From NCBI GenBank assembly GCA_963924565.1, contig OZ004608.1, positions 29,326,001 through 29,390,000 of the forward strand: 64,000 nt of DNA. The letters are read 5' to 3'. How positions within the stretch are numbered: the first letter of the stretch is position 1; every line of letters starts with the position of its first letter. The translations under genes and the position numbers were made by a program. This document shows positions 9,042 through 40,843 of the stretch, piece by piece. The notes under the pieces were generated by a model. The model saw only the letters and a program-made list of their open reading frames with translations. It made no database searches and was not told the origin of the DNA. The DNA comes from Ascidiella aspersa. Lineage: Eukaryota.

Positions 9042-12000
9042 ATGGCGAAAAAATGGCTTGTCTGGGTGTTTGCCGCTATCGTACTAACTGCTGGAATTGT
9101 GATGATCAGCCTTGGCTCCAGCTACTTCGCTAAGTACGGCCCGCAAGAGACAACGTCAAGCGAAAACATGGAAGTTTCAATTGATATGGACTTTTATAGG
9201 GTAAGTGGTAAATGGTCTGGGTGGCCAGAATAGTAACAAGATATGAAACTTTAGCTTTGAGTAACAGACTTAGTCGATTGATTTAGTTTTTAGGTATGTA
9301 ACTATACGCTTATGCATTAGGGTAGGCTACGCCATGATAATACAACAACCTATTTTGAAGTACCTAGCGTTTCTTCAACTTAGGGGATTTTACACAAGTT
9401 AGCTATATGTGGTTGCAAAAAAACGTTTGTTAGCTGCTTATTTTAGAAAAAGAATTTTTTCCAGAGCAGCACGTAGCTGAATTCACACAAATCAAACTAT
9501 TAATTATCATCATTTAACTGTTTTAATTGTCTCTTTACACATGCTTCGAATATAAGGATGGTTTTGGCAAAACACATGTGTAAGTTATGTTTAAGCTAAA
9601 CGACAAAGTGGGTAAACTTTGCTCGCAACCGTAAGTAAATAAAAAGAGCAAGATATTTTCCACACATTTTTTAAAGATATACTGTATAACGATAACTTCA
9701 CAGTCTATCTATTGCAAAAAACAATCACTGAAAATTGTTGAAGCGTTAAAACGAAAAATTGTTGTCATTTCCTTGGCAATGCTTGAATCCCATGGTGTAT
9801 TGCAATGTTTCTTAATCAGGTAAATGGTTTACCCAAGGGTGAATAAAATTTTTGCGGGGTCAGGGGTTGAACAAAACTAGAAAAGTTTAAGAAGCACTGG
9901 TGTATTGTGTAGCGTAGTGCCATATAGAAAATTTTTGTACATAGATCTATTACAAGCGGGGCGAAGACGTCGTTTTGTCGGCGCACCTAATCCGAAACAC
10001 AACTGGAAGGCAAAGTTTGACGGCGGAAGTGGAAAGTGCAGCAGAGTGCGAAAGCGTTGCGACGATTTGCAAGAGATTCAATTTCGATGCGGACAAAGCC
10101 ATGCAGCTGGAAGTAAAGGAACTGGCGGTACATGGTTGTTAAAAAAATGTTTTTTCAACCTCCTTAAACCTATAATAGTGATAAATTAACGTTACAAAGA
10201 AACGAAGGCTTATTTTCTAATTCCACAGCAGAATAACGGTATTATTTGCGCTGATGTATGTCTTCTAGCGCTATTTTGCCTATTTTGTAAAATTGTTTTA
10301 ATCCACAGTCGTCGTGCACAATCGCACACTCGAGAATTCTAGTTTTGCCAACCAAAGCGATATGATTGCTATTTTTATGCTTTTTGCGAATCGATAACAT
10401 CTTTGTATGAAAGAAACCACAGTATTTTTAAAGTTTCGTCTTTAAAACGTCATGTTTAGACGTAACTTGGTGACGTCACGGTACTACGCCATCTCTGAGA
10501 AAATAATGATGCCTCCACCCATACCAACAACCTAGGACAGCGCCTGGTAGGGAGATCTACTGGCTGATAACCGCATTAACTCTAGCGGCCATTGCGATAA
10601 GCTTTACAGAACGTGTCGCTTGTGTTGGTTTTGTGCAAATAAGTTTTACCCTTGCTACAGGAGTGTGCTGCAATGCATACTCAATGGCTGTTATTACATA
10701 TTTGGTTCGCCTGATTCGTTTTCATGTAACGCAATCGTGTATTGTGCAATGGTGGTTATTTATAATACCGAACGTACGCCCTAAAAGGAACAAATGTCCG
10801 GCAAACCTGTACACTAGGTGTGATGCCCCGTTTTACAAGAAAATATTTAAGGTGGTGTATTACACGGTGTCCATGTTCATAGATTACCAGATATATTTGC
10901 GTATTTTTCGTCATACTATATGGGCTATCAACTCCCATGATTAATTTTGGAGATTTTATTGCGTTGTTATACTTCGTTAACTTACGTTAGTATTCTGAGA
11001 TTTTCCAAATGTAGATTGTACCCGAACGGCTAACGGTGGGCAAACCCCTAAATGGGTACAAATAGAAAAATTTGGGACATCATTAATTTTAACAACGTTG
11101 TTCGGGCCACAGAGAATGATGTGGCTGGCTAGCACACGTGGGCCTAGGTTTGGAGTTCAATCAGACTGGTTAATTTAAAGTAAATACGCATTTCTTGCTC
11201 GTTAGGTAAAAAACTAATTTTGTATCTAGTAAATGTCTGTAAAAACACAAGTCAGAAATGTCAAAATCGCGCTCTCACAAATTCCTGTAAAGTTTTTTTT
11301 GCGAGAAGCAGTGGTCGATTTTCTAGGTTGAACAGTACTTTTAACCTGTGGGTCGCCACTTAATAGTAGGTCGGTTTAAGATTGTAGTAGGAATATTGAT
11401 AAGATTGCGTTTAGCTTTTTACTTTTGTGCCCCAGTCTTTAGATACGTTTTGCTATCATTCGTATAAAAACAACAAAATTTGATAAAATCAAAATATTAA
11501 ATCGAATGGTATGGTTATGATATTTGTTTTTATATTGCGAAAAACGGTGCATTACACCCAAAGTTTTTGCTTCTATTTTCTATAATCGCCTCGCGACACA
11601 ACGGTTGCGGAGTAATGAAGTTTCAAAAACAAAAATAATGTATTTTGTATATTGACGAGACATCTTGTATTCTCAATAGTCCGAACATCCAGAAGTGACT
11701 TGCTACGAAACAACGTGGACAAGTGACAACGCTGAGCTGGAGCCGGCAGATTGCTTTCCAATGACTGACTATTGGTTTGGAGGAGCCGAAATGTATTTCC
11801 AGGACTGGCCTATTAACAGGTAACCAATATCGAACTAAGCAATACCTTTAGACACAAGAATAATCTATAGTTCCCCATTCACTAGTAAAAGTATACCGGT
11901 AGCCTTTGGAAAGGCAATTACGAAAATCAGTTGACCGAAATTGCTATGCAAGCAAGGCAAGGTTTCACCTGAGGTAAGAACTCACGACCTCGGTCACACC

Positions 12001-15000
12001 GGGATCGTCTCTTTACTGACTGCTGAGCTACAGAGGCTCATTGAAGGCTGATCGAGAAACAATCATGGCTCTGTCGCCTACAGCATCTCGTTCGTTGATA
12101 AGGATTCATGTTATAATCTATTTTAACTTTGTTGATGTTTGTAATGCTTAATTCATGGTTAAATAAAATCGATCGCAACTTTAAGGATGTTGGCGCAAGC
12201 AAGACTGGCTTAGAAATAATGAAGACTGGGGTGATGCGTTCGAACTCACGACCTCCCTACATTTATACTGTCACTTAAAAACTTAGCTAATGTATGACAC
12301 CGTTGAATCTGGCAAATACTTTAATCGGTTCGCTTTAAAACAGCAGATACTAACAAAACTCGCGTTGCTTATTTTTGCTTTTTACAAACTAAAAGAAAGT
12401 AAAGAAACTAATGTAAAATAAGTGGTGAATGTGTATTGGGGTATTCTACCCATTGTCCAAAAAGGAGGCAGGGAGTGCCTGATGTCAGTAATTGTTTAGA
12501 CCCAGTCCGTTAGGACAACCATTCTCCCATAAGGAGACGATGTCGCCAGGTAGGGGCAGAGTTGCACATCGGCAGAAAGGATAAAGCTGCGCATCGGCAG
12601 AAGGTTATTGTTTTTACCCTTTTGTTTATGGTGTAAGTGTAATGTCAGTGTGAAAAGTAGTAATTATTTAAGTATTTTACTGCCCCCCAAAAAACGATGT
12701 TACCTAGGGAAAAAATGGCAGGATGCAACCCTTAAGGGCGTTGCTTTGCGAAAACACATAACCCTTATCTGCGATCTAGCTGGAAAAAGCACATGTCGTT
12801 CTACTTGTCCGGCGATATGTATGCCAACGACCAAGAATACGGCTCGGTGCTCGAGCGCTACTGGCTCTCGTCGCGAGGTGTCGCCCTCTACGTACCCCCC
12901 GAAGTACCCCTGCACGTCAGCATAGAAGACGGCCACATTTGCGTCAAAGGTGCCGGGTGAAAACTTGAAAAATTTAGACAATATTTCGTTGTTGTTTTTT
13001 GTTGTAACTGTTTTATAATTTGATTTTATTATTTAATTTCGTTTAATTCGTTTAAACCGTTAGTTGTCAACAGGGCCGGACTAAAGGTACTTTAAACCTA
13101 AGAAACAAAAAGTAGTATCACTACCAGCCTTACAAAAATGTAACCTTAAAAAAATTGAGGGCCGAATCTTCTCAGGGCCTAAGGCTATAGCCTTAGGAGA
13201 AAATTACTCAAGTGCAATTTTTATTGCGGTTGTCATAAGCAAATTAAATCGATTGACAATAATCTAAGACTTAGCCTAGAAGCAAGACTTTTGTTATAAT
13301 AAACAAAAGTAAATTATTAAGATTAAGAAAATTAGGCAAAATGGTTTGTGTCACTAGGTGGCATACGTGACCATTAAAGTTTGAAAACCACTATTTTGAA
13401 TATCGATTTTTTTCTACTGCGATGCTGCTAAATTTCAGTTGTTTACATGTCATTTTTGCTTTATCAGTAGTCAGTACAAGGGTATTGTGCTGTCCAGCCC
13501 TATACCTCTTCACCAACACACACAAACATTTCCCACTTTATATTACGTTACATACAGCGTATACCTTTAACGAGGATTCGATAAAAAGTAAAAACTGCGA
13601 TGAAAAGTAAATACAGCATTAAAAGCAAATCTATAATTTATTGCTTTGTTACACTACTTTGCTGCTTTCATTCACCAAAAATTGTTTCTACAGCTGTGGT
13701 TTAAACCGAATTACATTTTAAAGGTTCGTACTCTGACGTTTATTCCAAGTCTACATCGACCAATCACATGTTGCGCTACATTCTCTGCTTCGGGCAATCA
13801 CCACAACAAACTCACGAGTATATACTTCAGGTTCGTTTTTTTACAGATACTTTGAAATGTTGACGGCAATAAATTATAAAGATTTGTCATCGTTTAACGA
13901 GGTGAAGGCTATATAATTTTTGCGCATATAGACTGCAAACAATTTTTTTAATTCGGATGTACGTCTTTTTGGCTCCACAACAAAATGCAAATCCATATAA
14001 GATTTAAGATGTACTATTTTTAGCCATTTACAGGGCTGAGGTTTGAACATACCCCCTCGCCAATGCAAATGCCACGTAAAGACTATAGATCGAAAAATCG
14101 ACGTGAAGGATGGACCAGTCGGTTGTGAAAAATAGCACTCAAAAATAGCTCGAAAAAAAGAATGGACATTTTTTCGCCAATTCTCCCACTTACAGAAGTA
14201 CTTTGCGAGACCGAGCGGTCTGCCCGACTTACGGATGATGAAGTCGCCGATTTGGTCGACGTGGGCCCAGTACAAGCAGGAGATCAACCAGAGCGTGGTG
14301 CTGGAATACGCCCGGCAAATACTTGAGCATAACTTCTCCAACTGTCAGCTGGAGATCGACGATGGGTAGGAAGTCCATGGCTGATTGGCTGTGTTTTGGA
14401 ATAGTCTTCAGCTTGGGTATCCAAAAACATTGTATTTTACTCCGAAATCGGTAGCCGACATTTAGGCAAAAAGTACAATCGTCTGATGTAACTTTATTGT
14501 TAAAATGCTATTTTCTAAAAAAATGCTGTAAAAATTAACAACGCTATGGCTGAAATGTCGAAATTAGTTATTTATCTATTGGCACTGATACTCCCGACAA
14601 AAATACATCACGATACTATATCACAGCGCAAGTTAAGTATAGTTTTTCAAAAACCTTGTACTTAGTCCAAAACAGGCACTTCGGCCCATAGCTCCTGCAT
14701 AACAAGTTCAAACGACGATTAAATTGGACTACGCGTTGCAACTAAATACATTTTACGGTTGCGCTACACGGTACAGCTGGTAACATTTTAGCATGTCGCT
14801 AAAAAGCTTCACTAAAATTACTTCTATTACTTAACGCATATCTGTTGCTTTCGCAGCTAAGTAATATAACACGAAAATTGTGTTGCCTTTATTTTAAAAG
14901 GTTGAGCATAATGTTTATCGAATACTTTAATATTAAGCTATCCAAATTAAAAAATAAAGTCAATCTTTGTCCCTGCGGGAAACCATTTGCATGTAGGCCC

Positions 15001-18000
15001 TACAATGGATTGTAAAAATACCTATTGGATACCTTTGTCAGGTACGAAACCAGATACGGAGATTTCACCTTCGACGAGCAAAAGTTTCCGAACGCGGCTG
15101 AAATGATCCGAACGCTTCACGACCTCGGCTTTCGCGTGACCACCTGGGTGACCCCGTTCGTGAACCCGCGCTCGGTAAACTTTGACCCAGGAGAGGCGGG
15201 CAACCACTTTGTCCTGAACGGCGAAACCGAAAGCACAGGATTAACCGCTTGGTGGAACGGTGTAGGAGCGACCATCGATTACACAAAGAAAGATTCCTGT
15301 GATTGGTCAGTTTTGCCATCTTTGTGAAAATACTTTAGCTGTCATTATCTTATAAATCTTCAAGAACAGAGAGTGGACCAAGATTGCCAAAATCTAGGAT
15401 ACTGGTTTAACACCACGGAATACTAGGGTACCAATACTAAACACTCTGAACCGATACGGCCGCATACTGTAAATCTTAAAGGTGGAATAACATAAGATAA
15501 GATTTTCACCCATGTTATGAGGGTTAGTGAGTTGTATGACACCCATATGCATGTATTGCTGTGTACTGTTTTAATTGCTAGGTGAGTGAAATATCGGGCT
15601 AAGTGATTGGAGCCGGAGGCGGGACTCGACGGATTAGATTAACGATATTCCTTAAATTCTAAGTATTGTGGTTGAGTGGACCTGCGACTGACCATCATCT
15701 CACAAACGAAAGTTACTGGAACGATAATAAGAAGTTATCATGGTCATAATTAGGGGTTTAATTGTACATTCAGATAACTGCCCGCTTTGTAACTACTGTA
15801 AAAAAATAAAAACTTATTAAAACAGTAAAAGGGTGCTTCTCAGATTAGTTCAATGACCGTTCATCGGAAATTTTTGTAAGTGGGACGAAATATCAATGTA
15901 TAGTGACCAGTGTTGTTCATTTTAAAAAGACTTCCCAGTCAAGTCATTTGTAAAATAACTTAAGTCCAAGTCAAGTCTTTTCGAATAATTCCAAGTCAAG
16001 TCCTAGTCAAAGTCATCAGTTGCACAAGTCAAGTCCCAGTCAAGTCATAATTAGAGCAAGTCAACTTCAACTCATGTCCTTGTCATAAAAATAAAACGTT
16101 AAACTATTGGAATTTTTAAACTCGTATGATTATAAACAATAACTGAAATAAAAAATAAGGAAAAAGGAACATATAGCAAGCAATTTGTTTTTTGTGCAAA
16201 AATTGGACAAATAGCTCAATTTAAAAAAAAAATACTTAAAGCAATGCTGTATTTCAACCCAAGTCATTTGTTCAAAAGACTTAAGTCAAGTCAAGTCATT
16301 TAAAAACAATGACTTAAGTGCACACAAGTCATTGACTTAAGTCATTACAACACTGATAGTGACTTACATTTTACAATGTTTGATTAGCCTTAATGTAATT
16401 TGTCTCTGTATATCTCATGTTTAAAACAAGAAAAGGTCAAGATTGAATAATTTTGCAATATAAGTTCTTATTTTACATAAAGGTACGTCGACATTCTGGA
16501 GAAAGTAAAGTCGCAATACGGAGTGGATTCTTTCAAGTTTGACGCCGGTGAAATAAACTACATCACCAAAATCCCGAGTTATAAACTGGGCAAGGAAATG
16601 GACAACTTAGGGCGCTACACACAGTTCTACGCCGAGTGTGCCACCAGGTAAGGGTATATTTCGCGAGCTAACCTTTTAGGTGAGAGTATACGTCTGTGTT
16701 AAAATGTACCACACATAAACACTAGGCGAGAATGGTAAAAGGTTTTGCCCAATTTTTTGGAGTAACATATTTTATATATTTTTAGGAAAATCCAATTTTG
16801 TGCCTAAAACTAAATAAATCGAATCCCCTAGTTGGCTGGAAAAAGTGTTTTCAAATATCACATATTTTTGTTTAAATCTATTTTATTCATTTAAGATGCC
16901 TTCCAAAGTGGACTCAATGATTTTAAATTTGTGATTGTTTGAGTCATGTTATACGGAGATGTTTGAGTCATGTTATACTATTATCTTTCCCGAAGAAAAC
17001 AGACGCAAACACATCCACAAACATCTACTTACTTGAACGCAGATTGGGTACTCAGATCGAGGTTCGAGCTTCTTGGAACAACCAGAACCTCCCGATCTTC
17101 GTGAGGATGATGGACAAAGACTCCAACTGGTCACGCGCCAAGGGTTTGAAGACCCTTATACCCACAGCCCTGACGTTCAGTTTGCTAGGCTACCCTTACG
17201 TGCTGCCTGACATGATCGGAGGTGAAACACTTAGTGGCGACATCGAACTTCTATGGTGTTATGAATAGGATGTCCGCAAATATTTTTCGCAGTGCGCAAG
17301 AATATTTTAAGACTGATTTAGCAGGGGCCCGCGGCAGATCAACGTATGCCGTGAAAATTTTAGTGATGACGTCACAAAGAATTTTACTGCGCAAATGTCT
17401 TGTCTGGCTGCGCAATTGCGCAGTTGCACACCTTAGAGGGAACACTGGTCCGGTGATTTTTGCCAAGTTGCAGTATCGGCATATTCCTCCTATCCTACGC
17501 AGGGTGGTAATACGAGCACATTAATTTGTTTATATTACAACCATTGTTTGTGTTGAACAGTAAATTTAGCAGATAGGAAACCTTTACCAATCAATTTTAC
17601 TTCGTTTTTAAGTTTCGACTTAACAGCATTAGACATTACCTTAACACGTTTCATTTTATCGATTAAACAAGAGTAGGCCTTGTAACGTATAGTAAGTGAT
17701 TTGCTAAACAAGATGATGTTGTTGGTGTTGGAAACTTTTGAAACACGGTGTAAATGCATGTAAAAATCGAATGCCTAACTTGATAGATACAGGCCGGGCC
17801 ATATCTGCATCCTTTATGTTATTAAATTAAAACGATTTTGTGCTTTTTGTGCCCGACAAACAAAATTGATTGGTTGTAGGATAGATAACCTATATGCCTC
17901 GCGAAATTGCAAAACGAAGTCCCCAATCGTTTTCAGGTAATGGATACGAAGCTGGATTTCTCGAAACCCAACTTCCTGAGCGCGAGCTCTTCATCCGCTG

Positions 18001-18454
18001 GCTCGAGATCACGGCCTTCCTCCCCGCCATGCAGTTTTCCTTCACGCCCTGGCAGTACGATGACGTCACCGTTGACGTAGCGCGCAAATACGTCACACTT
18101 CACGAGGAAGTCATCTTCCCGGAAGTAAAGCAAGCGTCGGAAGATTACGTAAACGGTAAGAGTGGTCTGGGTCCGGTTCGTCCAATCTGGTGGGTGACAC
18201 GTGATGACGTCACCGCGTTTCGAATCGATGACGAGTTCATGGTCGGTGACGTCTACTTGATCGCCCCGGTGGTGGAGAACGCCACCCGGTGGCGGGACGT
18301 GTATCTTCCGGGCCCGAAGTTCCGCGACGGATCGAGGATGATCGTGTGGGAAGATCAGCTGAGAGGAGGAGATCCGGTCCCCGGAGGAACCTTGCTGAGA
18401 GATTACCGAGTCGAGTTGGAAGAGGTTTCCTGGTGGAAGCTTACTTTGATTTGA
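9042..18454 (+). CDS. MYORG: Myogenesis-regulating glycosidase-like (MYORG/KIAA1161/NET37), glycoside hydrolase family 31, copy A; 10 coding exons, ~684 aa, N-terminal signal-anchor
   Basis: Hand-spliced GT-AG exons 9042-9200, 9945-10127, 11680-11819, 12780-12949, 13724-13830, 14196-14365, 15042-15305, 16483-16647, 17043-17221, 17937-18454 join in one frame (2055 nt). Motifs: WFGGAE, ERYWLSS, PIWSTWA, LEIDDGY, KFP, WWNG, FKFDAGE (nucleophile), RMMDKDS (acid/base), PDMIGGN, PAMQFS. Hydrophobic N-terminus WLVWVFAAIVLTAGIVMISLG. Confidence 0.93.
9803..9899 (+). mobile_element. 97-bp hAT MITE (internal-deletion derivative of the 32315-33347 family)
   Basis: Termini CAATGTTTCTTAA and TTAAGAAGCACTG. 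Perfect 8-bp TSD GTGTATTG (9795-9802, 9900-9907). Both ends match the larger element at 32315-33347. Confidence 0.8.
11961..12040 (-). mobile_element. Degenerate tRNA-derived SINE head
   Basis: Minus strand reads GCCTCTGTAGCTCAG...GAGGTCGTGAGTTCTTACC (pol III A-box and B-box-like). A second B-box fragment GGAGGTCGTGAGTTCGAAC lies near 12238-12256. No intact cloverleaf. Confidence 0.45.
15908..16355 (-). mobile_element. Complete GACTT-rich hAT MITE (family A) in MYORG-A intron 7
   Basis: TIR CAGTGTTGT...ACAACACTG, perfect 8-bp TSD ATAGTGAC (15900-15907, 16356-16363) and arrays of AAGTC subterminal repeats. Confidence 0.9.
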
Positions 18455-20520
18455 TTTCTTGATTTGTTAAACTCGTGGATGATCTCGCAATGTAAGGTTA
18501 CATTTATCGTTTTTGACTCTTTCGGGAACCGCTTGGAAAGTCTTCTATTTCTAAGCTTGCAAGTAAGCTTTTGTTTAAATTATGTGTTTAACTTAATTTT
18601 GATTTAACTTAAAATTTTACTTCTCATTGTTTTTCGTGTCATAAGAATATCTTTTGTCAAAATATGTTACTGCTTACCGTTATTCGCCATTAAACTTAAC
18701 TGTTAAAGAGCCTGCTAAAATCTAAGCGAAGAAATATAAAATTCTTCGTAACACAGTCCGACAATCTTATATTTGCGCCATAAAGAGAAAACGTTTTTTT
18801 TAACTGCAGAACCTGTCTCCAGATGTAAGAAACAATTAAAGACTCATTGCAATTTCCCACTTCACGGAAATCGTTAGTAAAACGCTAAAGATTTACACGT
18901 TGTGAACTGGGCAAAGCGTTAAATTTGCAAGTAACAAACGCCATTTCTCTCTTGGGGTTTATTCTGCAAAATTCCGTACACATAACCTAAACAAACAATG
19001 TTATTTGTAGGGCGTTGTTTTGTTTTCCGATACCATGAACAGATTAATGTTAAACTTTTAGGATAAAATGTGATAAGTTCGTTTTTCGGGTAATAAAAAA
19101 TGTAAAAAAGTAAGTTTTTTATTTGTAAGAACAAAAAAATGGAAAGGATAAAAGCGGTAAGGTAAACAATACAGCAGATTTTACACTTTTTTTATGTTCC
19201 CAAGCTGGTTATGACTTAAGAATAGGACGATTATTTTTTGACATGTCAAAAAAAGTCAAAAGTATGTCAAAATTTACACTTCAGGTCAAAATTTGTTAAA
19301 ATTATTTCAAGTCAGAATCGAATAAACATGCACATAAATTCTTTAGAAAATGAAAAAAAAACTACAAGTCATCTTTTTAAAATTGTCGTTCAGTTTTTGA
19401 TGTTTTGGTTTATATTCAACAACATTTGAACTGTACTGTACTATATCTTTATTAAAGCAAATATGGTATATAAGCGAGAAGAATTAACCAAGGCTTCTCT
19501 GATTTGGACAAATGTATTGAACAGTAGTTTCTGTCTTTTTTCGCTTGTGATTTGGAATTGTCTATTTCCTGTTTCAAAAACTGGGCCTACATTTTTCTAA
19601 TTTGGCATTTTTATAGTTGTTTAACTGAGTATTTTCATGAGTTTTGCATAAACCCGAAAAATAACTGATTTGTGTTGGACCGGTAATCAGTAAAACATCA
19701 AAAATTTACGACGCCAAGACACACTAATGCAGTACGTTAACAACAAGAGGTTATATAAATGAATGTATTTTTAACAGGTCGAAATTTTGTCAAAATAAAT
19801 TATTCCTCGGTCCAAATTTGTCAAAATTATAATTTTTTAGGTCAAAATTTCCAATTTTTTTGGTCAAAAAATAATCGCCCTAATTTGTTTTAATCATGAA
19901 TGGATCTAATTCAAACAGCTCGATTGTAAATTCACCATAAAATAGCAACGCTGTGAAAAGTTTAGCTTAAACTCCAGTTCTTGAAAATATAACTTCTATG
20001 TTTTGTGACGTTATACCTGCGTACGTTAGCATTGTGCCATTCTGAGGAGAAACTCGTTGAAACGATTTTAACCAAGCGGTCGACGTCAGTTCCTATCAAA
20101 AAGTAATATAATTATAACTGAACAAAAATGCCTAAAACTTACTTTGCAAACAAAAAATAAATGCCAACAACAATACCAGTATTTACACTTTGTTACGTCA
20201 CGCCAAATTTTGCCACAAGGAGTTACAGTAACGTGTTGTGGCCAAATAATTAACAAACGGTCGGGTGAATCTTATATTTAATTGAAAATCAATAGATTTT
20301 TAACACATACAGTGCTTGTAATAAGAAATGGGCGATGAACAATTTTATTGCAAAAGGGCACGGCTACGCTTTTTTTATTAAGAACCGCTGCAGTAAATCC
20401 ACAACATTAATAAACAAAACCAAATATAAAGATAATGAACTGTTTACATTTTATTGAAGAAACATAAGCTACATGCAGCTACAGCTAACCTTTAGGATAT
20501 TTTGTTTTATTATAACTCAC

Positions 20521-21738
20521 TAAGTTTGCGATAATAACTTTGGTATTGATACATTGTTGGTGATAAATTGGTCGATAACCTCCTTGAAAAGGTTTGTATT
20601 ACTTCAAATTCCCTTTCTGTGCTCTTCCACCAGTCAACCTCTCTTGTCATCAGAATAATCTAGTGCAGAAGTTACACGTTATTGCGTTCAAACCTAAAAC
20701 ATTTAACTCTCTACCTGGTTGTCCTATATTTTCTTTTGACTCAGTCTTTAACTTTGATAATATACTTGTAATGTAGCTTTTATATTAAAGGTAACACATC
20801 TCAGAACTTAAAATAAACAAAACTATGTGATGTTCATAACTTCTTTATGACGTCATGTTTAGATGTAACTTTGTAGCGTAACGTTATTACGTAACTCTGT
20901 GTCGTCATCTCTGAAACAATCATGTACCATCCACCCAATTAAAAATCCTGAATCCGCGTCTGTAAAGGACTTGGCAACTAATTCACCTTTCTTTTAAGAT
21001 GGCTTAGTTATATTTAGTGGTTAACTCGTATAATTTCTTAATTTACTTTCTAAGGTAAAATCCTTGCGGTTAGATCACTAAAAAGTATTGGAACAACACT
21101 GAACTTTCCGGGCACCATAAATACCGTTGTAGTGAAGAAAAAGTGACCACATCGTGTCAGGTATCGGCTCCGATCCGATAATATTGGACATGTTGAACTA
21201 CAGCTGGCCGTCTAAGCAGAACCAAACTCCCGTTACAGGTTTAAGATAGAGCGGTTTTGGAATAGGTGGGATCTCGCTTGTGTATTGCGTGAGCAAGCAT
21301 TAATAAATGGTCGGATTCAGCCGGTTCTATAAAACCGTCTGACGAAATTTTATGAGATCAGCGAGCCGGTTATCATTTTTGCATCTTATCTAATACACCG
21401 ATTTTTGAGATACAAGTGGCTCACGTGTTTATTTTTCAAAATGCATCTGAGCGTGACTGGTCACTCAAAACTCATAATTATTACCCTTGAATCGGAGAAG
21501 GCCCTGTGGATTTCATCCCAAAAGAAACATCCCGGCACGTCGGCAACGGCGTCCACGTTGGAAAACACTGTAGACGAAAGTCTTCGGTGCTTCCTCCCGC
21601 CTTGAAGATCCCCTCTCACTGTAATCCGAGGTAGTTGTATTGCTCAAAAAAACCGTACACTTCGTACCCAAGTTCGCTTGGAACAGCCGCCATTGTCTTG
21701 GTGCCGGTCTTGCACGTTCCAGCGCATATCACCATCAT
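20521..21738 (-). pseudogene. Sulfotransferase-like (Sulfotransfer_4, P-loop) pseudogene, two recognisable exons
   Basis: Exon 21738-21485 reads MMVICAGTCKTGTKTMAAVPSELGYEVYGFFEQYNYLGLQ*EGIFKAGGSTEDFR, then after a frameshift VFSNVDAVADVPGCFFWDEIHRAFSDSR|GT. Exon 20659-20521 reads IILMTREVDWWKSTEREF...LSPTMYQYQSYYRKL|GTGAGT. PAPS-binding motif VICAGxxKTGT and the DAVxDxP motif are present. There is an in-frame TGA at 21616-21618 where Trp is expected, plus the frameshift. Confidence 0.8.
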
Positions 21739-22413
21739 TATTCTTTCGGATTTCTTGCAAGCGAACCTATAACGTAAAGCTGCAATATAAATCAACTTGC
21801 AGGATAGATTTAAATATAACATGAACGAATGACAAGTTAACTTGTTTTGGCCCTGTTATTCTTTTACAACTCGGCTAGGATCTTTGTGCACTGTGATTGT
21901 TTTGAGACCTTGACTTGACTCAAACCTCAAGTATCTAGGTGATGCCTGTAATCCTGTAGAGAAGTTGTTCCCACTCTATATCGGTTTAGGAGATTCTACA
22001 GAAAAGTTAAATACGCGATTGTTTTGGGGGCTGTAATTTTATACAAACAATCTCTAGTCTAGAAGCTTGCCCATAGAGCAAAAATTTAAATACTATAGAA
22101 TCAAAAATAACTCTCGGCAGCTTGAGCCATAAAAACGACAACCTGGTTGGGGACAACTGCTGTGTCTCTTCAATATTCAGCCCTAAATGACTATGTTAAA
22201 TAGAGACCAGCCTATCTTAATAAATAGAATCCCAAAGCAACTCAAGTTTCAATTGCCCACTCTTGCTCATTACACATGTTTGCATTTAAACTATAACTTT
22301 TCAACTTCCTTTTTACACTACAATTTCAAAATCAAAACAAACTTTGTTTTAATCTAAACAGCACAAATTAGGCGCACACAAAATCTCAATAAATAAATAA
22401 ATCTAAACGAAAA

Positions 22414-25400
22414 TCAAGAAACAAGCTTAAGCTTCCACCAGGAAACTTCTTCCAGCTCGACTCGGTAATCTTTCAGCAAGGTTCCTCCCGGTACCGGATC
22501 TCCTCCTCTCAACTGATCTTCCCACACGATCATCCTCGATCCATCGCGGAACTTCGGGCCCGGAAGATACACGTCCCGCCACCGGGTGGCGTTCTCCACC
22601 ACTGGGGCGACCAAGTACACGTCACCGACCATGAACTCGTCATCGATTCGAAACGCGGTGATGTCATCACGCGTCACCCACCAGATTGGACGAACCGGAC
22701 CCAGGCTGCTCTCGCCGTCTACATAATCTTCCGACGCCCGCTTTAGCACCGGGAAGATGACGTTCTCGTGAAATGTGACATACTTGCGCGCTACGTCAAC
22801 GGTGACGTCATCGTACTGCCAGGGCGTGAAGGAAAACTGCATAGCGGGGAGGAATGCGGTGATCTCAAGCCAGCGGATGAAGAGCTCGCGCTCAGGAAGT
22901 TGGGTTTCGAGAAACCCCTTTTTGTAGCCGTTTCCTAGGGATAATTTGCACACACAATGTACTTTTTAAAACTTGCAGTAATTATTTTTAACGAAAAAAT
23001 ATTTACTTTTTGGTACTGAATAATTTATGCAAATACAAACTTTTGGAACGAACAAACTTTTTGCAAAATCTACAACTAATTGCAATAATGTCAAACCAAG
23101 ACTGGTATATCTTTTCTCTTCTGCCTATTTCGGGGTACTACCAATTTGTTAAAAAACGATACCTTATGACTAAATTCAAAATAAACTAGAAAGCAATAGT
23201 TAAATGTTATGTGAATGATGAAACAGTCTCTTTTGAATAGCGTGATCTCTTATTTAACAATTTTAAAATATGTGTCGAGACCCTTAGCAAAAGGTAAAAA
23301 TTCACCAAGGGAACACGAATAAGTACCTTCAGAAGAAGTAGATTAATACTGTTTCATCTATTCCTTTACTACACGTATCACCAGTATTGTTACTAGTCAT
23401 TTTGAAATGAATGGAGTCCCAGTCAGGTAAGTGGCAAAATAGCTTAAGTTCAAGTCAAGTCATTCCCAACAAATAACAAGTCCAAGTTCAAGTTATTGCT
23501 AAAGCAAGTCAGTTTTCCGTCAAGTCACTAGCAACAAAATCAAATACTTAAATTTAAATATGCCATTGCATTGTTTCACCTAACAACCCCAATACAAAAC
23601 AAATAGCAAGCAAATTGATATCCGACAATTGACTCACCTGTACAAAAAGGGGTCGCCTGCACAAAAGACTTGCGTCAAGTGAAGTTATTTTACTCCAAAG
23701 ACTTAGTTTTTCAGATGGGTCATTTCAAAACAAAGACTTAAGTGCACTTCAAAAAAGTCAATAAGCCATGGCAACACTACATATCACCTTTATATTCTAT
23801 AGTAATCGTCATTTGAGTCTCTACCTCCGATCATGTCAGGCAACACGTAGGGGTAGCCGAGCAAACTGAACGTCAGGGCTGTGGGGATGAGGGTCTTCAA
23901 ACCCTTGGAGCGTGACCAGTTGGAATCCTTGTCCATCATCCTCACGAAGATCGGGAGATTCTGGTTGTTCCACGAGGCTCGGACCTCGATCTGAGTACCC
24001 AATCTGCGTGAAAATAGGGATAAAAGCTAAAAACGTATAACACATAAACCTAACGTTTATATTAGTCGAATCAAGACGATTTTGTCGGTCGAACTTTAGT
24101 TCGAACTATTTTATTACCGAGGGCAGTTCATTTTTTGGTCAGCGTAACTGTTAAATTATAATGACGTTGAAGTGATGTAAAATCCTTTTTTAGAGTAAGC
24201 AAACATATTTTCATTTAGTCTTAATGATGCTTGTTTTACAGCTTGCGTACAAGGGTGGCTTGTATATGCGTACTTATTTAAATGTTAAGAGTATATTTTT
24301 TTCATTGTGAACCGAATTTTTAAAGCAATGCGATCCTATATTATTATAAGAAAGCAAAAAGCTTTGCCAGGTGAAAACGTTTAAGGATCACCAATTAAAA
24401 CTATGGACACATCAGATTCAATTTGAACAGTTTAAAATTATAAAGAGTTTTCAACATGATGATGAAGCGAGGCGCTTCTGTATAGCGTGTTCGTGTTCCG
24501 TGGAAAAGACGTTACATTTTCTTAGTCTATTAGCTTTTACTCTGCCGCAAAAAAGAAATAAGTTTGACGTAGAGAACAAAAATTCGAAACCAGAACTCGA
24601 CAGTCTAAACTACGAGTTTCTAAAGCTATAACGTTCGCATTTTGTACTAAGCTCATTATATAAACGCTTCGTATCTCTTTACTACCTCGCAACACATTCC
24701 GCGTATTGCTTTGTGTAGAAACTGGGATTCTCCAACTGTGCTTTGGTCTCGTACTCGGGGATGGAAACCACGAACCCGATCTCACCCGCATCGAACTTGA
24801 ACGAATCGACCAAGTATTCGTCCTGGATGTCTTCCAAGTGATCCACGTACCTACATTTAGTTATCTGTTTTACATGATAAAAGTGTGTAGCCTATATCAC
24901 AACGACAACGCTGGGCTGTGTATGGAATGAGCAACTGTTTATTCGAGCGGGGCAATCCGGAATAAGAAAAATAAACAGATTAAAATATCAAGTTTTAGCT
25001 GAATATTCTTCCTTGGTTTACATGCCATTGGGTCGTTTTATCTATAAATGAGTTCGATAACAGCCATCTGGTAAAAAGGTAAATAGGTAATTCTATTGTT
25101 CTTTGCACAACCAACGCGGCCTTTTCGGTAATGTTTCAAATGGACAATAAGCTGCCTGTAATGCGCTATCCTGATATTACCTAGTCAGAGGACCTTTAAT
25201 AAATCTGACCCAGGTATGATGTTGCAAAGTATGTAGGTTGCAATGACTTAAGTCCATAACTTGATTAAAGCTTAAGTCCAATTTTGAGTAAAATAACATC
25301 GTCTCTGTTTTTAAATGACCTAACTTGGCCTCAGTCTTTTGGGCATAATGACTTGGGTTAACTTAAGTTTTGTGGACAAATGACTTAGGCTGAAATGAAC

Positions 25401-28400
25401 TGTTGTTTGTTAGCAATTTTCTTTATAAATATTCGGTTTTAACTTAATTTGAAGTTGACTTGCTCAAAATATGATTTGATTTGGACTTGCCTTGGGAAAA
25501 GTATTTTATAAAGACTTGATTACAACACTGCAAAGCACCTGCTATCAATATTTCGGAAAGCTTATTCATTAAAAACATAGTATCGCCCAGTTCAGTTTAT
25601 GTCAAATACTAGGGTCCCTCAGTTTTGATGCACAAACAAATGCTGAAGAAAATAGCGTCAAATGAATAGTCAATTTACCAGTCACAGGCAGCGGGATTGG
25701 TAAAATCGATTGCGGAACCTTTTCCGTTCCACCAGGTTGTGATTCCCGCTTTCTCTTCCAAGCCACTGCGAATAAAGTAGCCGTGTTCCTCGCCGACCTG
25801 GTAGTTCTCCGAGTTCGGGTTCACGAACGGCGTCACCCAGAGCGTGACGCGAAAGCCGAGCTCGCGCAGTGTTCGCGACATTTCGCGCGCGTTCGGGAAC
25901 TTTCGCTCGTCGAACGTGTGGTCGCCGTAGGCCACTTCGTACCTGTTAAGCCGGTGAAAATAAAGCGATAAAAGTAGGAAGTAAATGGGCAATGTAGTTT
26001 AGAAAACACTTTTCTAAACATTTAAGGCTCTATGATTCATCAAACTGGAAAAATAAAAACGGATCCTTGTGATTTGTTGTATGGTGTTTAGACTAGCGAT
26101 AGCTTGCATTTTGTTTATATATTTAATATTTATGTTCAGGAGCTACATATTAAAACAATTATGTAGTTTCAATAATTTTGGTTAACGCCTTATAAAATAT
26201 CTCTCCACCCATTTCTTTACCGACTTTAATGTTTGAATATTTACGTTTCAAAATAATGACTTGACATTAAATTACGTTTTTGACGCTGATTTGAAATAGA
26301 GACTTGTTATTTTTTATTCTATATTTTGAAAACGACTGACTTGGACATCGGCTAATTTACAAATAAATTGACTTGAGACCGTTTCAAAGCGACTTGTTTG
26401 CAACGCTAGATTCCCATTTACCCGTCGTCGATCTCCAGCTGACAGTTGGAGAAGTTGTGCTCAAGTATTTGCCGGGCGTATTCCAGCACCACGCTCTGGT
26501 TGATCTCCTGCTTGTACTGGGCCCACGTCGACCAAATCGGCGACTTCATCATTCGTAAGTCGGGCAGACCGCTCGGTCGCTTCAGGAAAGTCTTCAACAA
26601 AGAGTTAAACACGAGAATTGCGTTCCTTATATATAGCTTAAGACTGCAGAGATGACCGATACTTAAAATTTCACTCCGATACCGATACCAGATATTTTGG
26701 ACACGAAGTTTGGCGATCCTATCCAATAACAAATGACGTCATTACTATACAATCAAATTAGAGAAAATTTAAACTTTAAAAGGTAAATTTTTTAAGTTAT
26801 CAAGCCAAAACTTACTTCAGCGTTAACACATTCAGTTATCTTCAGACCTATAGGCATTGTTTTAAAAAGGTTCATACCTTTCACAATGTAATCGCTGTGT
26901 GTAATTGCAAATAATGGCTGAAATTCTTGTATTAATTTGGTATCGGATCGGCACCGATGCCGCCCTAGTATCGGACGAGTCCATACTACCACGATACTAC
27001 CACGTCGCATCGGGCATCGGCTCCGATCCGATATTATCGGACATTCACTTCACAGAACTATACCTAAAAAGTGGTCATGTGGTCACACGACACAGAACTA
27101 TACCTAAAAAGTGGTCATGTGGCCACAATTATGGTCCTTATTTTAGGAATGTTTTTTAAAAATTTGTGATATCCGTGAATATCCTTGAATAAATTCAATA
27201 ACGGATGTTGGTGCAATTTATCTGCAATAATTACGTATATACCTACAATGTAATGTTAGCATACAATCTGATTAACTGTAAATTTGGACATAATAGTGCG
27301 TTTCGACTGATGAAGGATGTGTTTAGTTACTGTGGATTTTTGTTAAATGAATAGAAGAAAACGAATTTTAATCACTTCCAGTTTAGTTTTCTTGGCAGCT
27401 TACCTCTAGCATGTACTCGTGAGTGGTTTGCACTTGCCTAGAGAAGCAGGTCGTGTACTTCAACCAGTTGCCTCTCTGTGACTTGTAACCGTCGGTAGAG
27501 GAACCTTAAAAGGTTGTAAAATTGCGTCACTGTGTTTTCAAGAACTGCTGTAAAAGAGCATCCTGTCACGAAAAATTTTAAAATAGCATAAAGATTCGCT
27601 TCAATTAAAATAAGTTTATGTCGTAAATATTAGGATCAGGGGCGGATCCAGGCTTGCACGACGTCTTAGCTCCCCTAAACTATATTTTTGCCTTTTTTAC
27701 CTACAAAATCGCTTCGAGCAAACTTATATGGCTTTGTTGTATGTATTAACTCGTTTAGGGGGAATCTTTTCATTGAAACTGATTGTTTCGCGCTTCAGTA
27801 ACGTTTTCGCACAAAAGGATAAACGCACTGTATGTTTGACTTTCGACGTGGTTAATGTTTAGCTATATATTCAAAGACCCACATAGCTTGTTACCCAAAA
27901 TCATCTTGATCAATGTCATTATATCAAGTAATGTTCCAATATTAATCGTGTGCCCAAAGCGTCACGCCTCCTTGTATATTAAACATTTTGGCAAACTTAA
28001 GTGAAAGAGAAGAGACCTAATTTCAGTTGAGCATTTTCGCACGAGTTCGACCGGGAACAGAAAGTTTCTTTTCGTGTTGGCCGCTTCCGTACAAACGTAA
28101 ACGCTATTGCGATCCTGTGTTTGTGGTAATGTAAAGTGGCAGTAAAATTGAGTTATGTACCCGGATACAGATATTCACTTTCCACCTGCTTTTAGTGATT
28201 TGCTTAAAACCGGAGATTTAAATCGCTTCTGACCAGAGAAGTTTTACTTCACACTCGAAGACGATATAAATTATGTAACGTAATACACAGAGAACATTTT
28301 TTTTTACAAATTAAAACAAAATCGAGCTGTTAGATTAAACAGCTTAAACAAATAGATATTAACAAAACATTTTTTTAAAAGCCTAAAACTCTATAAAAGA

Positions 28401-31005
28401 AGTAGCATATCAAAACAATTCATATAAAACCGTCACCTTTAAGGCAGATGTGGCCTTGCTCAATGCTGACGTGTAGAGGCGCTTCTGGGTCGACGAATAT
28501 CGCGAAACCGTTGGACGAGAGCCAATAGCGTTCGATCACCGGCCCGAAAGACTGGGGCAGGTCATAGTTGTCATGTGAGAGGTAAGGGGCCATCGGCTGA
28601 GTCCAACTGTGGGTAAAACGTATTAAACACGTGGCAAAGTGTTTTCATCGTTTTGCGTACAACAATTACACACAGTCAACTATTAATTATATCAAACACA
28701 CGACCACTATTAGCCTATTAGGGCCTATCTCCTTGGTACCACAATTCTATGATTTAAAGTGTATGGCACTATTTGTTACAAGTTTAAGGGGCTCTTGACG
28801 TCATATCGAAAGAAGGTAGAATATTTCGATTTTTACTAAAAGCCAGTTATGGTCCAAATAAACCGGTACTTTCATTTATAACAATATATGATAAAATTGA
28901 TAAGACAATAAAGGTTAAGTTTTTTTTATCAAACGTTCTATCGTGAAAACAGTACAATTAAACATACAGTCGGTGGTGTCACTAAGTTACCTCAAGTAAA
29001 GACGCCTATTTTCGAAATCCGGCCCGCTTTTATTATTACCTTTTATCAGTATTTTACCAGGTCAAGCCGGTGGAGTTTCAGTAGCTTACAGCGCGTTGAC
29101 CAAACATTGCCAAAACCAAAAATATGGGTGAATGCTGGTATGAACGGTATTGCTTTTACCTGTTAATAGGCCATGTTTGGTTAGACATTTCGGCCCCTCC
29201 AAACCAGTAACTCTCTGTCATCGGAAAACAGTCGACTGGCGTGAGATTATCGTTGTTGCTCAACCACGTTGTTTCGTAGCAGGTAACTTCGTCGCTGTCC
29301 GTCTGTATTTATGTAAGCCGTTTTTCCACAGGTCTCCAGAATAATCTAATGTTCCTTCACAGCTTTTTCGGTCTATTCGGGTGACCAATTTAAGCCTAAA
29401 GCGTTCTGCGAATTTCTGCATTTTTTAAAACCATGTTGTAAGAATTTGAAATGCGGTCGTTTTGAAACACTTGGCAACACAGGACAGTAATAAAACAACT
29501 GGGAGGCTGATTGTTTACAGTTCACACAAAGGCCACAGTGAACACATAACACATTTAGACAAGGAAAAAGAGGTTATTCGTGCAATACTTTTCAACAATT
29601 GGGTTACTGTTTGCAATATTTATGCACAAGTTATAGTTTAAGCCAGGGGCTCAGACAGGGGTGTACAACTCAAACATGCTGGCGTGCCAATTTTTATGTT
29701 ATAACTTCTTCCCGTGCCAAAGTTTGGAAACTAATTCTTTTTAAATAAAAGCGCCTTTTCACTTAAAATAAAAACGTTTATTTACACATGAAAAAATTTT
29801 TTTTATTCAGGTAAACCATTCATAATTGACCAAACTGCTTCTTTGCAAACGTTTGTTTTTAGCCAAACTCTGAAGAATGATTGTAAGATGTGTACTGGAA
29901 ATGCGCATTACTGCATCTAAGTTATCGCGATTTCTCTTTTTTAGAGAGGGAGGGGGCTTGTGTGACACATTTGGCCGCGTGTTGGACAACCCTGGTTTAA
30001 GCATATCAATCGAGGGTTGAAATTGTAAGAAAAATTATACCTCTGGTTCATAAATTGCAAAATCCATGCTTTGCCCATCATAACGCATGACTGCGCACAG
30101 CGCCTCGTCACCTTCGCATTCGATAAGTGTGACGTCACTGGGAAACATTGTGTCTCTTCCATCAGGTGAACGCGACAGCCTCGAAATAAAATATCTGCTC
30201 TCCGGTATGTCGGTTCTGACGTAAATAATCTAGAAACAAAACTATGGTTGACATTTTTAATGTTAAGGTGCGAAAAAACAGCTCTTTTTATGTGCGAGTG
30301 TCCTGGATAAAAACCTTAAGTAATACTGCAAAGTATTAGGTTAAAAAGCGCTATAGTTCATCAGTTCTCCATATACGAAGCCTAAAATAAGGGTCTAACC
30401 AACGCAGGGTTTCCCAACCTTTTTTACACGGTGGCCCCCTTTGAAAGTTTTGATAAATCAATGTCTCCCCCCCCCCCCCCTTTTGCCGACCTTTTGAAAA
30501 AAAGTAACGTCCTTTTAATTAAAAAAACGTTTATACAGTAACTGGTAGTTAGGATGATAAAATATTAATAAATCTAAAAGTTAAACAAAGAAAGTAAACT
30601 CAAGATGACATCTAGATTGTGAATCCCTGGTCTAATGACAATTAGATTTCGCAGCAAACATTATTTTTGAGAAGAAGTTAGTACAAGTTGTATATAACAC
30701 AAAGCGATGAGTGCACGACGGCACGTGCCGTATGACATCATGGCTTTGTCTAGGTCTCTAGGATATATAATTTTACCATTTCGGTAACGCAAATAAACGA
30801 AAGTTTAATTCGCAACCTAGATGAATGGGTATTTTAAACATTTATTTGAGTTGAAAGGCAGCCTTCTTACCGTCATATCGTCGTTGTGAAACTCGATCCC
30901 GTAATGTGTCTGAGGGGAATCCGGCTGCAAAAAAACGTGACGGACCATCAATATCAACAGAAACGAGCATGTCTCTGCTGACTTCAAGCCTAATGGTCTT
31001 TTCAT
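22414..31005 (-). CDS. MYORG: Myogenesis-regulating glycosidase-like (MYORG family, GH31), copy B; 10 coding exons, ~678 aa
   Basis: Exons 31005-30871, 30229-30041, 29302-29160, 28606-28437, 27504-27404, 26591-26422, 25942-25679, 24850-24686, 24003-23825, 22934-22414 splice in frame (2037 nt), with the same intron positions and phases as copy A. FKFDAGE and RMMDKDS are intact. Exon 1 is the least certain. Confidence 0.92.
23382..23779 (-). mobile_element. Diverged GACTT-rich hAT MITE (family A) in MYORG-B last intron
   Basis: Termini CAGTATTG and CAACACTA, near-perfect TSD CGTATCAC/CATATCAC, AAGTC repeats. Confidence 0.7.
25233..25530 (+). mobile_element. Diverged GACTT-rich MITE (family A)
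   Basis: GACTT repeats throughout; ends TACAACACTG. Confidence 0.6.
26646..27050. mobile_element. CCGATA/TATCGG-repeat MITE (family also near 21160, 47715-48010, 54960-55200, 62300-62400)
   Basis: Termini GATGACCGATA and TATCGGACAT, with internal CCGATAC/GTATCGG subterminal repeats shared among several dispersed copies. Confidence 0.55.
29644..29994. mobile_element. hAT MITE in MYORG-B intron 2
   Basis: CAGGGG...GTTGGACAACCCTG flanked by identical 8-mers GTTTAAGC (29636-29643, 29995-30002). Confidence 0.7.
30405..30629. mobile_element. hAT MITE related to 52749-52942
   Basis: CAGGGTTTCCCAACCTTTTTTACACGGTGGCCCCCTTT matches the reverse complement of the right end of the 52749-52942 element. 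Confidence 0.65.
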
Positions 31006-40520: not shown

Positions 40521-40704
40521 TACTTCGGCAACTATTTTTTGACGCTTTAAAGCGCATCCAACATGGACCGTACATATTTTGGAAGTTTTAACAATCTACA
40601 CAACACGGTTCTTACTTCGGCAACTATTTTTTGACGCTTTAAAGCGCATCCAACATGGACCGTACATATTTTGGAAGTTTTAACAATCTACACAACACGG
40701 TTCT
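40521..40704. repeat. Perfect tandem duplication of a 92-bp unit
   Basis: TACTTCGGCAACTATTTTTTGACG...CAACACGGTTCT starts at both 40521 and 40613. Confidence 0.9.
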
Positions 40705-40843
40705 TTTCACAATTTTTATTTAATTAGACTGTGTTATCCACAAAGTCATTTGATTTATGACGTTTACCATATTATAATTTTAAAGTGCAAACTATGTTTA
40801 GCGTATACTGACTATAAAAAGATTACACCGCTTGAGTAATACT

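Follow-up and report, generated by a model that had tools for sequence, protein, structure and literature searches.

How can two neighbouring genes be nearly identical, down to their silent letters, in some exons and strongly diverged in the exons that lie between? A 64,000-nucleotide (nt) stretch of the genome of the ascidian Ascidiella aspersa (assembly GCA_963924565.1, contig OZ004608.1, positions 29,326,001 to 29,390,000, forward strand), referred to here as the window, raises this question. It holds two intact frames for MYORG-like GH31 enzymes of 10 exons each, arranged tail-to-tail, with nine GT-AG introns at identical positions in both. Gene A occupies 9042-18454 on the plus strand and encodes 684 amino acids (aa); gene B occupies 31005-22414 on the minus strand and encodes 678 aa, its first exon being uncertain. 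Exons 6, 9 and 10 of the pair are homogenised. In our judgement it is likely that short tracts of DNA-to-DNA gene conversion are still being copied between those exons of A and B that are similar enough to pair.

Comparison of the window with itself revealed inverted matches at 14209-14368/26578-26419 (98%), 17037-17223/24009-23823 (94%) and 17935-18443/22936-22428 (92%); exons 3, 4 and 7 gave inverted matches as well, but weaker ones. Exons 6 to 10 of gene B are joined at the modelled splice sites by one spliced contig from a public sequencing run (X5). The exon models are listed below, where dS is the synonymous divergence between A and B and residues carry human MYORG numbering, deduced as chain position + 78 in PDB 7QQF.

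9042-9200, plus strand: gene A exon 1; start codon and predicted N-terminal membrane anchor, aligning with the N-terminus of the Clavelina protein P0001
9945-10127, plus strand: gene A exon 2; 14 of 60 residues in common with B
11680-11819, plus strand: gene A exon 3; unconverted, dS 1.8
12780-12949, plus strand: gene A exon 4; unconverted, dS 1.7; aspartate aligned to human MYORG D213 (+1 subsite)
13724-13830, plus strand: gene A exon 5; unconverted, dS 1.2
14196-14365, plus strand: gene A exon 6; homogenised over 14209-14365; equivalents of W321, D353 and D354
15042-15305, plus strand: gene A exon 7; dS 1.1 with weak residual silent identity; barrel insert, W426 equivalent
16483-16647, plus strand: gene A exon 8; saturated dS; FKFDAGE motif of the catalytic nucleophile
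17043-17221, plus strand: gene A exon 9; homogenised over its full length; equivalents of R504, R517 and D520
17937-18454, plus strand: gene A exon 10; homogenised over 17957-18443 with a divergent patch at 18088-18166; stop codon
18455-22413, no strand: spacer of 3.96 kb between the two stop codons; the 3' flanks do not align (score 22, shuffle level)
22414-22934, minus strand: gene B exon 10; homogenised over 22914-22428 with a divergent patch at 22783-22705; stop codon
23825-24003, minus strand: gene B exon 9; homogenised; mosaic alleles in other runs
24686-24850, minus strand: gene B exon 8; unconverted
25679-25942, minus strand: gene B exon 7; unconverted
26422-26591, minus strand: gene B exon 6; homogenised tract 26578-26422
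27404-27504, minus strand: gene B exon 5
28437-28606, minus strand: gene B exon 4; unconverted
29160-29302, minus strand: gene B exon 3
30041-30229, minus strand: gene B exon 2
30871-31005, minus strand: first coding exon of the gene B model; start uncertain, no RNA cover

An initial annotation of this locus, made from the letters alone, had proposed an exon-by-exon mosaic, and the measurements agree with it closely. For exons 3 to 10, dS between A and B was 1.8, 1.7, 1.2, 0.17, 1.1, saturated, 0.34 and 0.27, so that values of 0.17-0.34 in exons 6, 9 and 10 stand against 1.1 to saturated in exons 3-5, 7 and 8. Exon 6 carries 11 differences in 170 nt, of which 8 fall within the first 13 nt and 3, all synonymous, in the last 157 nt (earlier given as 155 nt). 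Exon 9 differs at 12 of 179 nt with a change of one amino acid, just as described before. Exon 10 has 48 differences in 518 nt. The first 20 nt contain 8 of them, the final 11 nt another 7 and a patch at nt 152-230 a further 17, while the remaining 408 nt hold 16 scattered ones; its earlier description as nearly identical save for the ends and a central patch is therefore accurate if this is taken to mean about 96% identity. The claim that exons 7 and 8 are far more diverged also stands, with 53 of 88 and 28 of 55 residues identical (about 29 of 56 had been counted in exon 8). At the protein level, A and B are 93, 98 and 91% identical in exons 6, 9 and 10 versus 61, 60 and 51% in exons 4, 7 and 8. 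The introns, previously seen as dissimilar, gave local-alignment scores of 20-28 in 8 of the 9 same-position pairs, which is the level of shuffled sequence (mean 22.9, maximum 33); the ninth pair, intron 7, scored 66 owing to a high-copy repeat. At 3 of the 6 ends, the homogenised tracts stop before the end of the exon (by 13, 20 and 11 nt). Homogenisation is thus confined more tightly than to whole exons.

At residues that are identical in A and B, the codon is the same too in 210 of 248 cases in exons 6, 9 and 10 versus 84 of 149 in exons 3, 4, 5, 7 and 8 (Fisher p = 9e-10); this grouping of exons was chosen after the data had been seen, and a heterogeneity test over all eight exons gave p = 2e-8. 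Codon usage predicts the same codon in about 40% of cases, which is exceeded with z of 6-12 in exons 6, 9 and 10, of 3.1-3.9 in exon 7 and of 1.6-2.1 in exon 5, with the remaining exons at 1.5 or less. Exon 7 accordingly retains a surplus of silent identity, though a smaller one (32 of 48 codons the same). By permutation, the clustering of identical runs had p = 0.0005 for summed squared runs and p = 0.024 for the longest run. A third, unlinked paralog, described below as the C7 paralog, shares the codon of A in 9 of 26 cases in exon 9 and 34 of 79 in exon 10 (43 of 105 in sum). The content of G and C at third codon positions (GC3) was not raised in the converted exons of either gene (A, 0.675 vs 0.605, p = 0.10; B, 0.71 vs 0.67, p = 0.35). 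Protein constraint does not track conversion either. Between A and Clavelina, protein identity is 72, 83 and 73% in exons 6, 9 and 10 and 73, 66 and 60% in exons 4, 7 and 8; mean orthologue identity is 0.70 in the unconverted exon 4 and 0.66, 0.79 and 0.60 in the converted exons 6, 9 and 10, and in exons 6 and 10 the orthologues are just 57-73% identical to A. Furthermore, at columns that are invariant in 8 orthologues, A and B have five changes in common, all of them in exons 6 and 10. The earlier contention that silent near identity goes beyond protein constraint is upheld by the codon-usage scores and by these orthologue identities. The exon mosaic of A and B is real and more than chance.

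Trees built for each exon class from 15 proteins differ in the same way. In exons 6, 9 and 10, A and B form a clade (100/100) on branches of 0.019 and 0.061, a path of 0.08, and the pair adjoins Clavelina. In exons 3, 4, 5, 7 and 8 there is no A+B clade; A and B stand in a polytomy with Clavelina and Ciona on branches of 0.47 and 0.92, a path of 1.39. Judged from these sequences, the A-B split in the unconverted exons would have roughly the same depth as that from Clavelina. A recent whole-gene duplication followed by fast protein evolution was considered and rejected, since silent sites and introns have diverged too. No orthologue of gene B was found among 263 collected proteins of at least 300 aa or by a search with B exon 7, although the word-based searches used are weak.

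We then turned to alleles of gene B in four of five public sequencing runs, X1, X2, X3 and X5. X2 and X5 come from two additional samples of the organism. X3 is a marine metagenome from a separate study, X5 is treated as RNA solely because one of its contigs is spliced, and X1 is possibly the sample behind the window's assembly and hence not independent. The X5 allele of B differs from window B at 0/175, 1/264, 3/162, 13/180 and 26/478 nt in exons 6 to 10, the last figure coming from X5 record 28, which spans 22456-22933. Taken together, 39 of 658 nt differ in exons 9-10 and 4 of 426 in exons 7-8 (p = 2e-5). Of the 13 differences in exon 9, 12 are listed: 5 are gene-A letters and 7 are private. 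The two kinds interleave at distances of at most 31 nt and recur in an X2 DNA contig anchored in a B intron; they are therefore physically linked. Gene-A letters occur in B exon 9 alleles at 23909, 23925, 23958, 23973 and 23976 (in one allele also at 23982). In the X5 and X2 alleles of B, 5 of the 12 distinguishing exon 9 sites carry the A letter, all of them among the 7 sites towards the 5' end and none among the 5 towards the 3' end (p = 0.03), and an X3 read with a B intron (depth 2) carries it at 6 of 7 covered sites. Over 23893-24003, the X5 allele has 6 listed differences from window A and 10 from window B. The exon 9 alleles of B are as distant from one another as from A (12, 12 and 13 listed differences), and the letter at 23909, the sole amino-acid difference of exon 9, is private to the window B haplotype among the covering contigs. 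Contigs anchored in A are nearly uniform in exon 9, with one new letter in X2. These mosaic B alleles indicate that conversion has likely been recent and repeated. The near uniformity of the A alleles beside the mosaic alleles of B makes a net flow from A to B likely in exon 9.

Exon 10 offers a similar hint within its divergent patch: at 22720-22726, X2 and X5 agree at three letters that are unlike window B, and window B equals window A at two of them, as if a short tract of A had passed into the window's haplotype of B. Some X2 contigs run from exon 9 (window 23822, 24017-24025) into introns that match neither A nor B. Two of these flanks were looked for in the window and were absent from it; such contigs may reflect intron alleles of another structure or one more gene copy in the animal concerned.

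Short-tract conversion between the two genes would have unfolded as follows. An inverted duplication, about as deep as the Clavelina split, would have been followed by an early loss of homology in the introns, restricting conversion to exon islands whose edges then eroded. From that point conversion may have maintained similarity and similarity permitted conversion, with exons 1-5 and 8, and later exon 7, dropping out. Net flow in exon 9 would likely have run from A to B. The least certain step is that selection for a changed substrate preference of B helped exons 4 and 8 to escape, which we put forward tentatively. With introns that can no longer be aligned, DNA-to-DNA conversion is limited to exons in any case, and no RNA step is needed. 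The inverted layout may plausibly aid conversion, by analogy with the precedent discussed in PMC3199776. Neither exon length nor constraint accounts for which exons escaped: exon 7 is 264 nt long and exon 6 is 170 nt, and mean orthologue identity is 0.70 in exon 4 and 0.60 in exon 10. Of the initial inference, the old duplication and the repeated, exon-confined conversion are borne out by the silent-site tests, the trees and the mosaic exon 9 alleles of B; its suggestion of a spliced cDNA template gained no support, as no intron was lost and no processed copy turned up among the best candidates scored in the genome.

Several points weigh against ongoing conversion as we describe it. A forced A+B clade in exons 3, 4, 5, 7 and 8 is not rejected by the approximately unbiased test (p-AU 0.23), and the duplication is dated from protein trees. 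Exon 7 escaped despite being the second-longest exon and having a symmetric rate (10:10), and in exon 8 the rate asymmetry between A and B reaches p < 0.05 with 1 of 6 outgroups only. Exon 6, in which the X5 and window alleles of B do not differ (0/175), runs opposite to the pattern of exons 9-10 (p = 0.0002). The allele data comprise a few contigs from three samples of one study and one depth-2 read, and the contrast of exons 9-10 with exons 7-8 is based on one allele pair. Polymorphism common to both copies is, according to the treatment in PMC3924837, the strongest sign of conversion; in exon 9 both letters were seen in B and a single one in contigs anchored in A, and contigs drop variants. 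A depth check on X2 does suggest a dropped A path. A alleles of X2 carrying B letters had been entertained and were discarded, the depth of X2 record 14 (60.4) fitting a lost A path if the single depth is assumed to be 50. Mosaic B alleles could also stem from older homogenisation together with very deep allelic ancestry.

Taking the donor question first, spliced complementary DNA (cDNA) or RNA of one paralog would give exon-confined, 3'-biased conversion. The converted exons do all lie in the 3' half, gene B is transcribed and spliced in X5, the introns and 3' flanks are untouched (a feature not specific to this route), and dS below intron divergence has been read as a sign of cDNA in the fungal ribosomal-protein genes treated in PMC6993855. 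However, both genes keep all nine introns, the tracts leave out exon 7, exon 8 and the initial 20 nt of exon 10, tail-to-tail proximity yields the same 3' gradient so that position does not discriminate, and unalignable introns also confine conversion at the DNA level in the case set out in PMC3728101. When the best candidates in the 308.6-Mb genome were scored, no processed copy was found and no further copies of exons 7, 9 and 10 at A/B similarity; as a third copy or retrocopy, only the old C7 paralog and one weak match on C1 came up, and the idea was rejected. We consider a cDNA donor unlikely. The same holds for the bolder proposal that spliced transcripts reverse-transcribed in the germ line keep rewriting single exons of the neighbouring gene while its introns stay in place and that B thereby pairs a catalytic core re-copied from A with its own substrate-selecting loops (exons 4, 7 and 8), which seems to us quite improbable.

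Alternatively, homogenisation, or exon replacement by crossover between the inverted copies, may have happened once or twice long ago and not today, with the diversity of B representing deep ancestral polymorphism. This would suit the lack of sites shown to be polymorphic in both genes, the X2 intron flanks that match neither gene, and the strong differences that sea-squirt alleles can display (61 in an X2 contig of 1151 nt). Yet the tracts differ in divergence (3/157 in exon 6, 12/179 in exon 9), the X5 allele of B resembles A over one stretch of exon 9 and B over the rest, the X5 and window alleles of B show few differences in exons 7-8, and the X5 and X1 contigs keep the standard exon/intron order. 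We regard such an old and finished homogenisation as improbable.

Cross-talk between the copies during assembly or polishing is a further concern, given that X1 is perhaps the same sample as the window and that the evidence comes from contigs, not long reads. X1 contigs with A intron flanks nevertheless reproduce the exon 9 letters of window A (7 and 6 differences from B), and an X1 contig anchored in B intron 8 carries exon 9 with 0 differences from window B, so that both versions are recovered with their own introns. From another sample, the spliced X5 contig has B-specific exons 7 and 8 joined with an exon 6 that does not differ from that of window B; the A-specific exons 7-8 have no cover in X5, which says nothing on the expression of gene A. 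Contigs of X1 and X2 both end at 14264, 30 nt past the last A/B difference preceding a 95-nt identical run. A polishing artefact is very unlikely. Finally, constraint, codon bias or selection on silent sites could in principle keep exons 6, 9 and 10 alike without exchange, and exon 9 is indeed the most conserved among orthologues (0.79) and the exons are rich in GC3 (0.6-0.8), but the excess over the codon-usage null, the equal GC3 of the two exon classes, the modest orthologue identity of exons 6 and 10, the derived changes common to A and B at invariant columns and the free variation of B alleles at silent sites lead us to reject it as scarcely credible.

What the two genes encode bears on why some exons escaped. 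By domains, best matches and active-site residues, A and B are MYORG-like GH31 glycosidases. Their best matches are ascidian MYORG-like proteins (Clavelina 74% across exon 10, Styela 57%). A Pfam search of gene A gave matches above threshold in exons 7 and 10 (PF01055, the GH31 barrel, and PF21365, the C-terminal domain); taken alone, exon 10 scores above the cut-off for PF21365 and below it for PF01055. The equivalents of human MYORG D213, W321, D353, D354, W426, K461, D463, R504 and R517 are identical in A and B, as is the residue aligned with the acid/base D520. Human MYORG is described in PMC9491548 as a GH31 alpha-galactosidase whose natural human substrate is unknown. The domain layout of A and B is shared with human MYORG and with the Clavelina lepadiformis MYORG-like protein P0001. 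Dimer-interface residues described for the human enzyme are mostly not conserved in A, in B and also in Clavelina, and the notion that divergence of the exon-7 insert bars A/B heterodimers was therefore set aside.

Otherwise invariant columns have changed in B at 5 of 25 positions in exon 4 and 4 of 22 in exon 8, and at none in A in either exon. Two of the exon 4 changes adjoin the D213 equivalent and those of exon 8 come after the nucleophile D463, so that, relative to the human enzyme as described, gene B has altered both neighbours of D213 and residues following the nucleophile. The rate asymmetry in exon 4 is 12:1 with Clavelina as outgroup; over six outgroups it lies between 10:2 and 12:1 for five and is 11:3 for the remaining one, and the relative-rate test gives p < 0.05 with 5 of 6. 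Because the changes flank the +1-subsite D213 and follow D463 while the catalytic residues are kept, a changed substrate preference of B is plausible; that it exists and was shielded from conversion by selection is, on sequence grounds, a conceivable reading that falls a little short of an even chance. Relaxed constraint on B fits the changes in exons 4 and 8 equally well.

The genes may also differ at their N-termini. The anchor region of A has a 19-residue hydropathy maximum of 2.6; that of B is weak, and its first exon is uncertain. An alternative 5' end of gene B joins 31352-31278 to an acceptor at 30924 on the minus strand, and with this candidate exon B might begin with a short sequence resembling a signal peptide where A has its membrane anchor. 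If it is the true start, the product of gene B would be soluble.

Elsewhere in the genome, whose contig C2 holds the window, the C7 paralog lies at C7:22645466-22648972 and has a different intron layout, with a single open frame covering most of exons 7-10; its identity is 66% with the second MYORG-like proteins of Clavelina and Ciona and 52% with the first. The weak match to exon 10 at C1:14963051-14963212 (39% over 54 aa) is probably a distant GH31 gene. The high-copy dispersed repeat, rich in CAAGT units, occurs in the window at 206-604, 15917-16358, 23397-23749, 25237-25494 and 59034-59392, that is, in introns of both genes and elsewhere, and is likely a non-autonomous mobile element. Tandem arrays are present at 43711-44471 (51-nt unit x14.9, 92%), 47097-47465 (162-nt unit x2.3, 99%) and 40521-40705 (92-nt unit x2, 100%), and a small family of direct and inverted repeats at 37575-39796, with several copies inside 39309-39796.

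The process itself is known, and the A/B pair is a clear, compact further case of it; our literature search, which did not extend to supplements, found no paper on this pair, on KIAA1161 with Ciona or on MYORG with gene conversion. In A and B, exons with dS above 1 alternate with exons that apparently still exchange, and converted alleles probably segregate today. With the pair one can test how short a homologous stretch (170-180 nt between unalignable introns) is enough to keep conversion going, and whether it stops through selection or through the loss of homology. Its unconverted exons point to loops that likely set substrate preference in MYORG-type enzymes, and the mosaic is a caution for trees and dating of such paralog pairs.

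The closest parallels, as far as the published accounts cited here go, each share some of these features. In Tigriopus californicus, conversion between GOT1Sd and GOT1Sr and between GOT1p1 and GOT1p2 is likewise mostly exon-restricted beside an unalignable intron, with mosaic divergence and some converted alleles, but the coding regions of the exon-restricted pair are little diverged, whereas in A and B converted and near-saturated exons alternate (PMC3728101). Dlxa and Dlxb of Capitella teleta are also old, linked and tail-to-tail, with near identity limited to a conserved coding stretch; there it covers one homeobox and 12 intron letters, compared with three separate exons and allele-level evidence here (PMC3199776). 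Other inverted pairs with conversion named in that account are Drosophila Hsp70, amylase and trypsin, and cases in C. elegans. The mammalian pairs BMP8A/B, DDX19A/B and TUBG1/2 similarly combine concerted with diverging exons and yield differing trees; their tracts, however, include introns and raise GC3, and those of A and B do neither (PMC2720389). In the red and green opsins, divergence peaks have been selected in the face of conversion, much as the amino-acid changes of B cluster in the escaping exons, but the opsin introns are homogenised, the peak is a narrow one within an exon and selection is its clear cause, while for A and B lost homology alone could suffice (PMC3924837).

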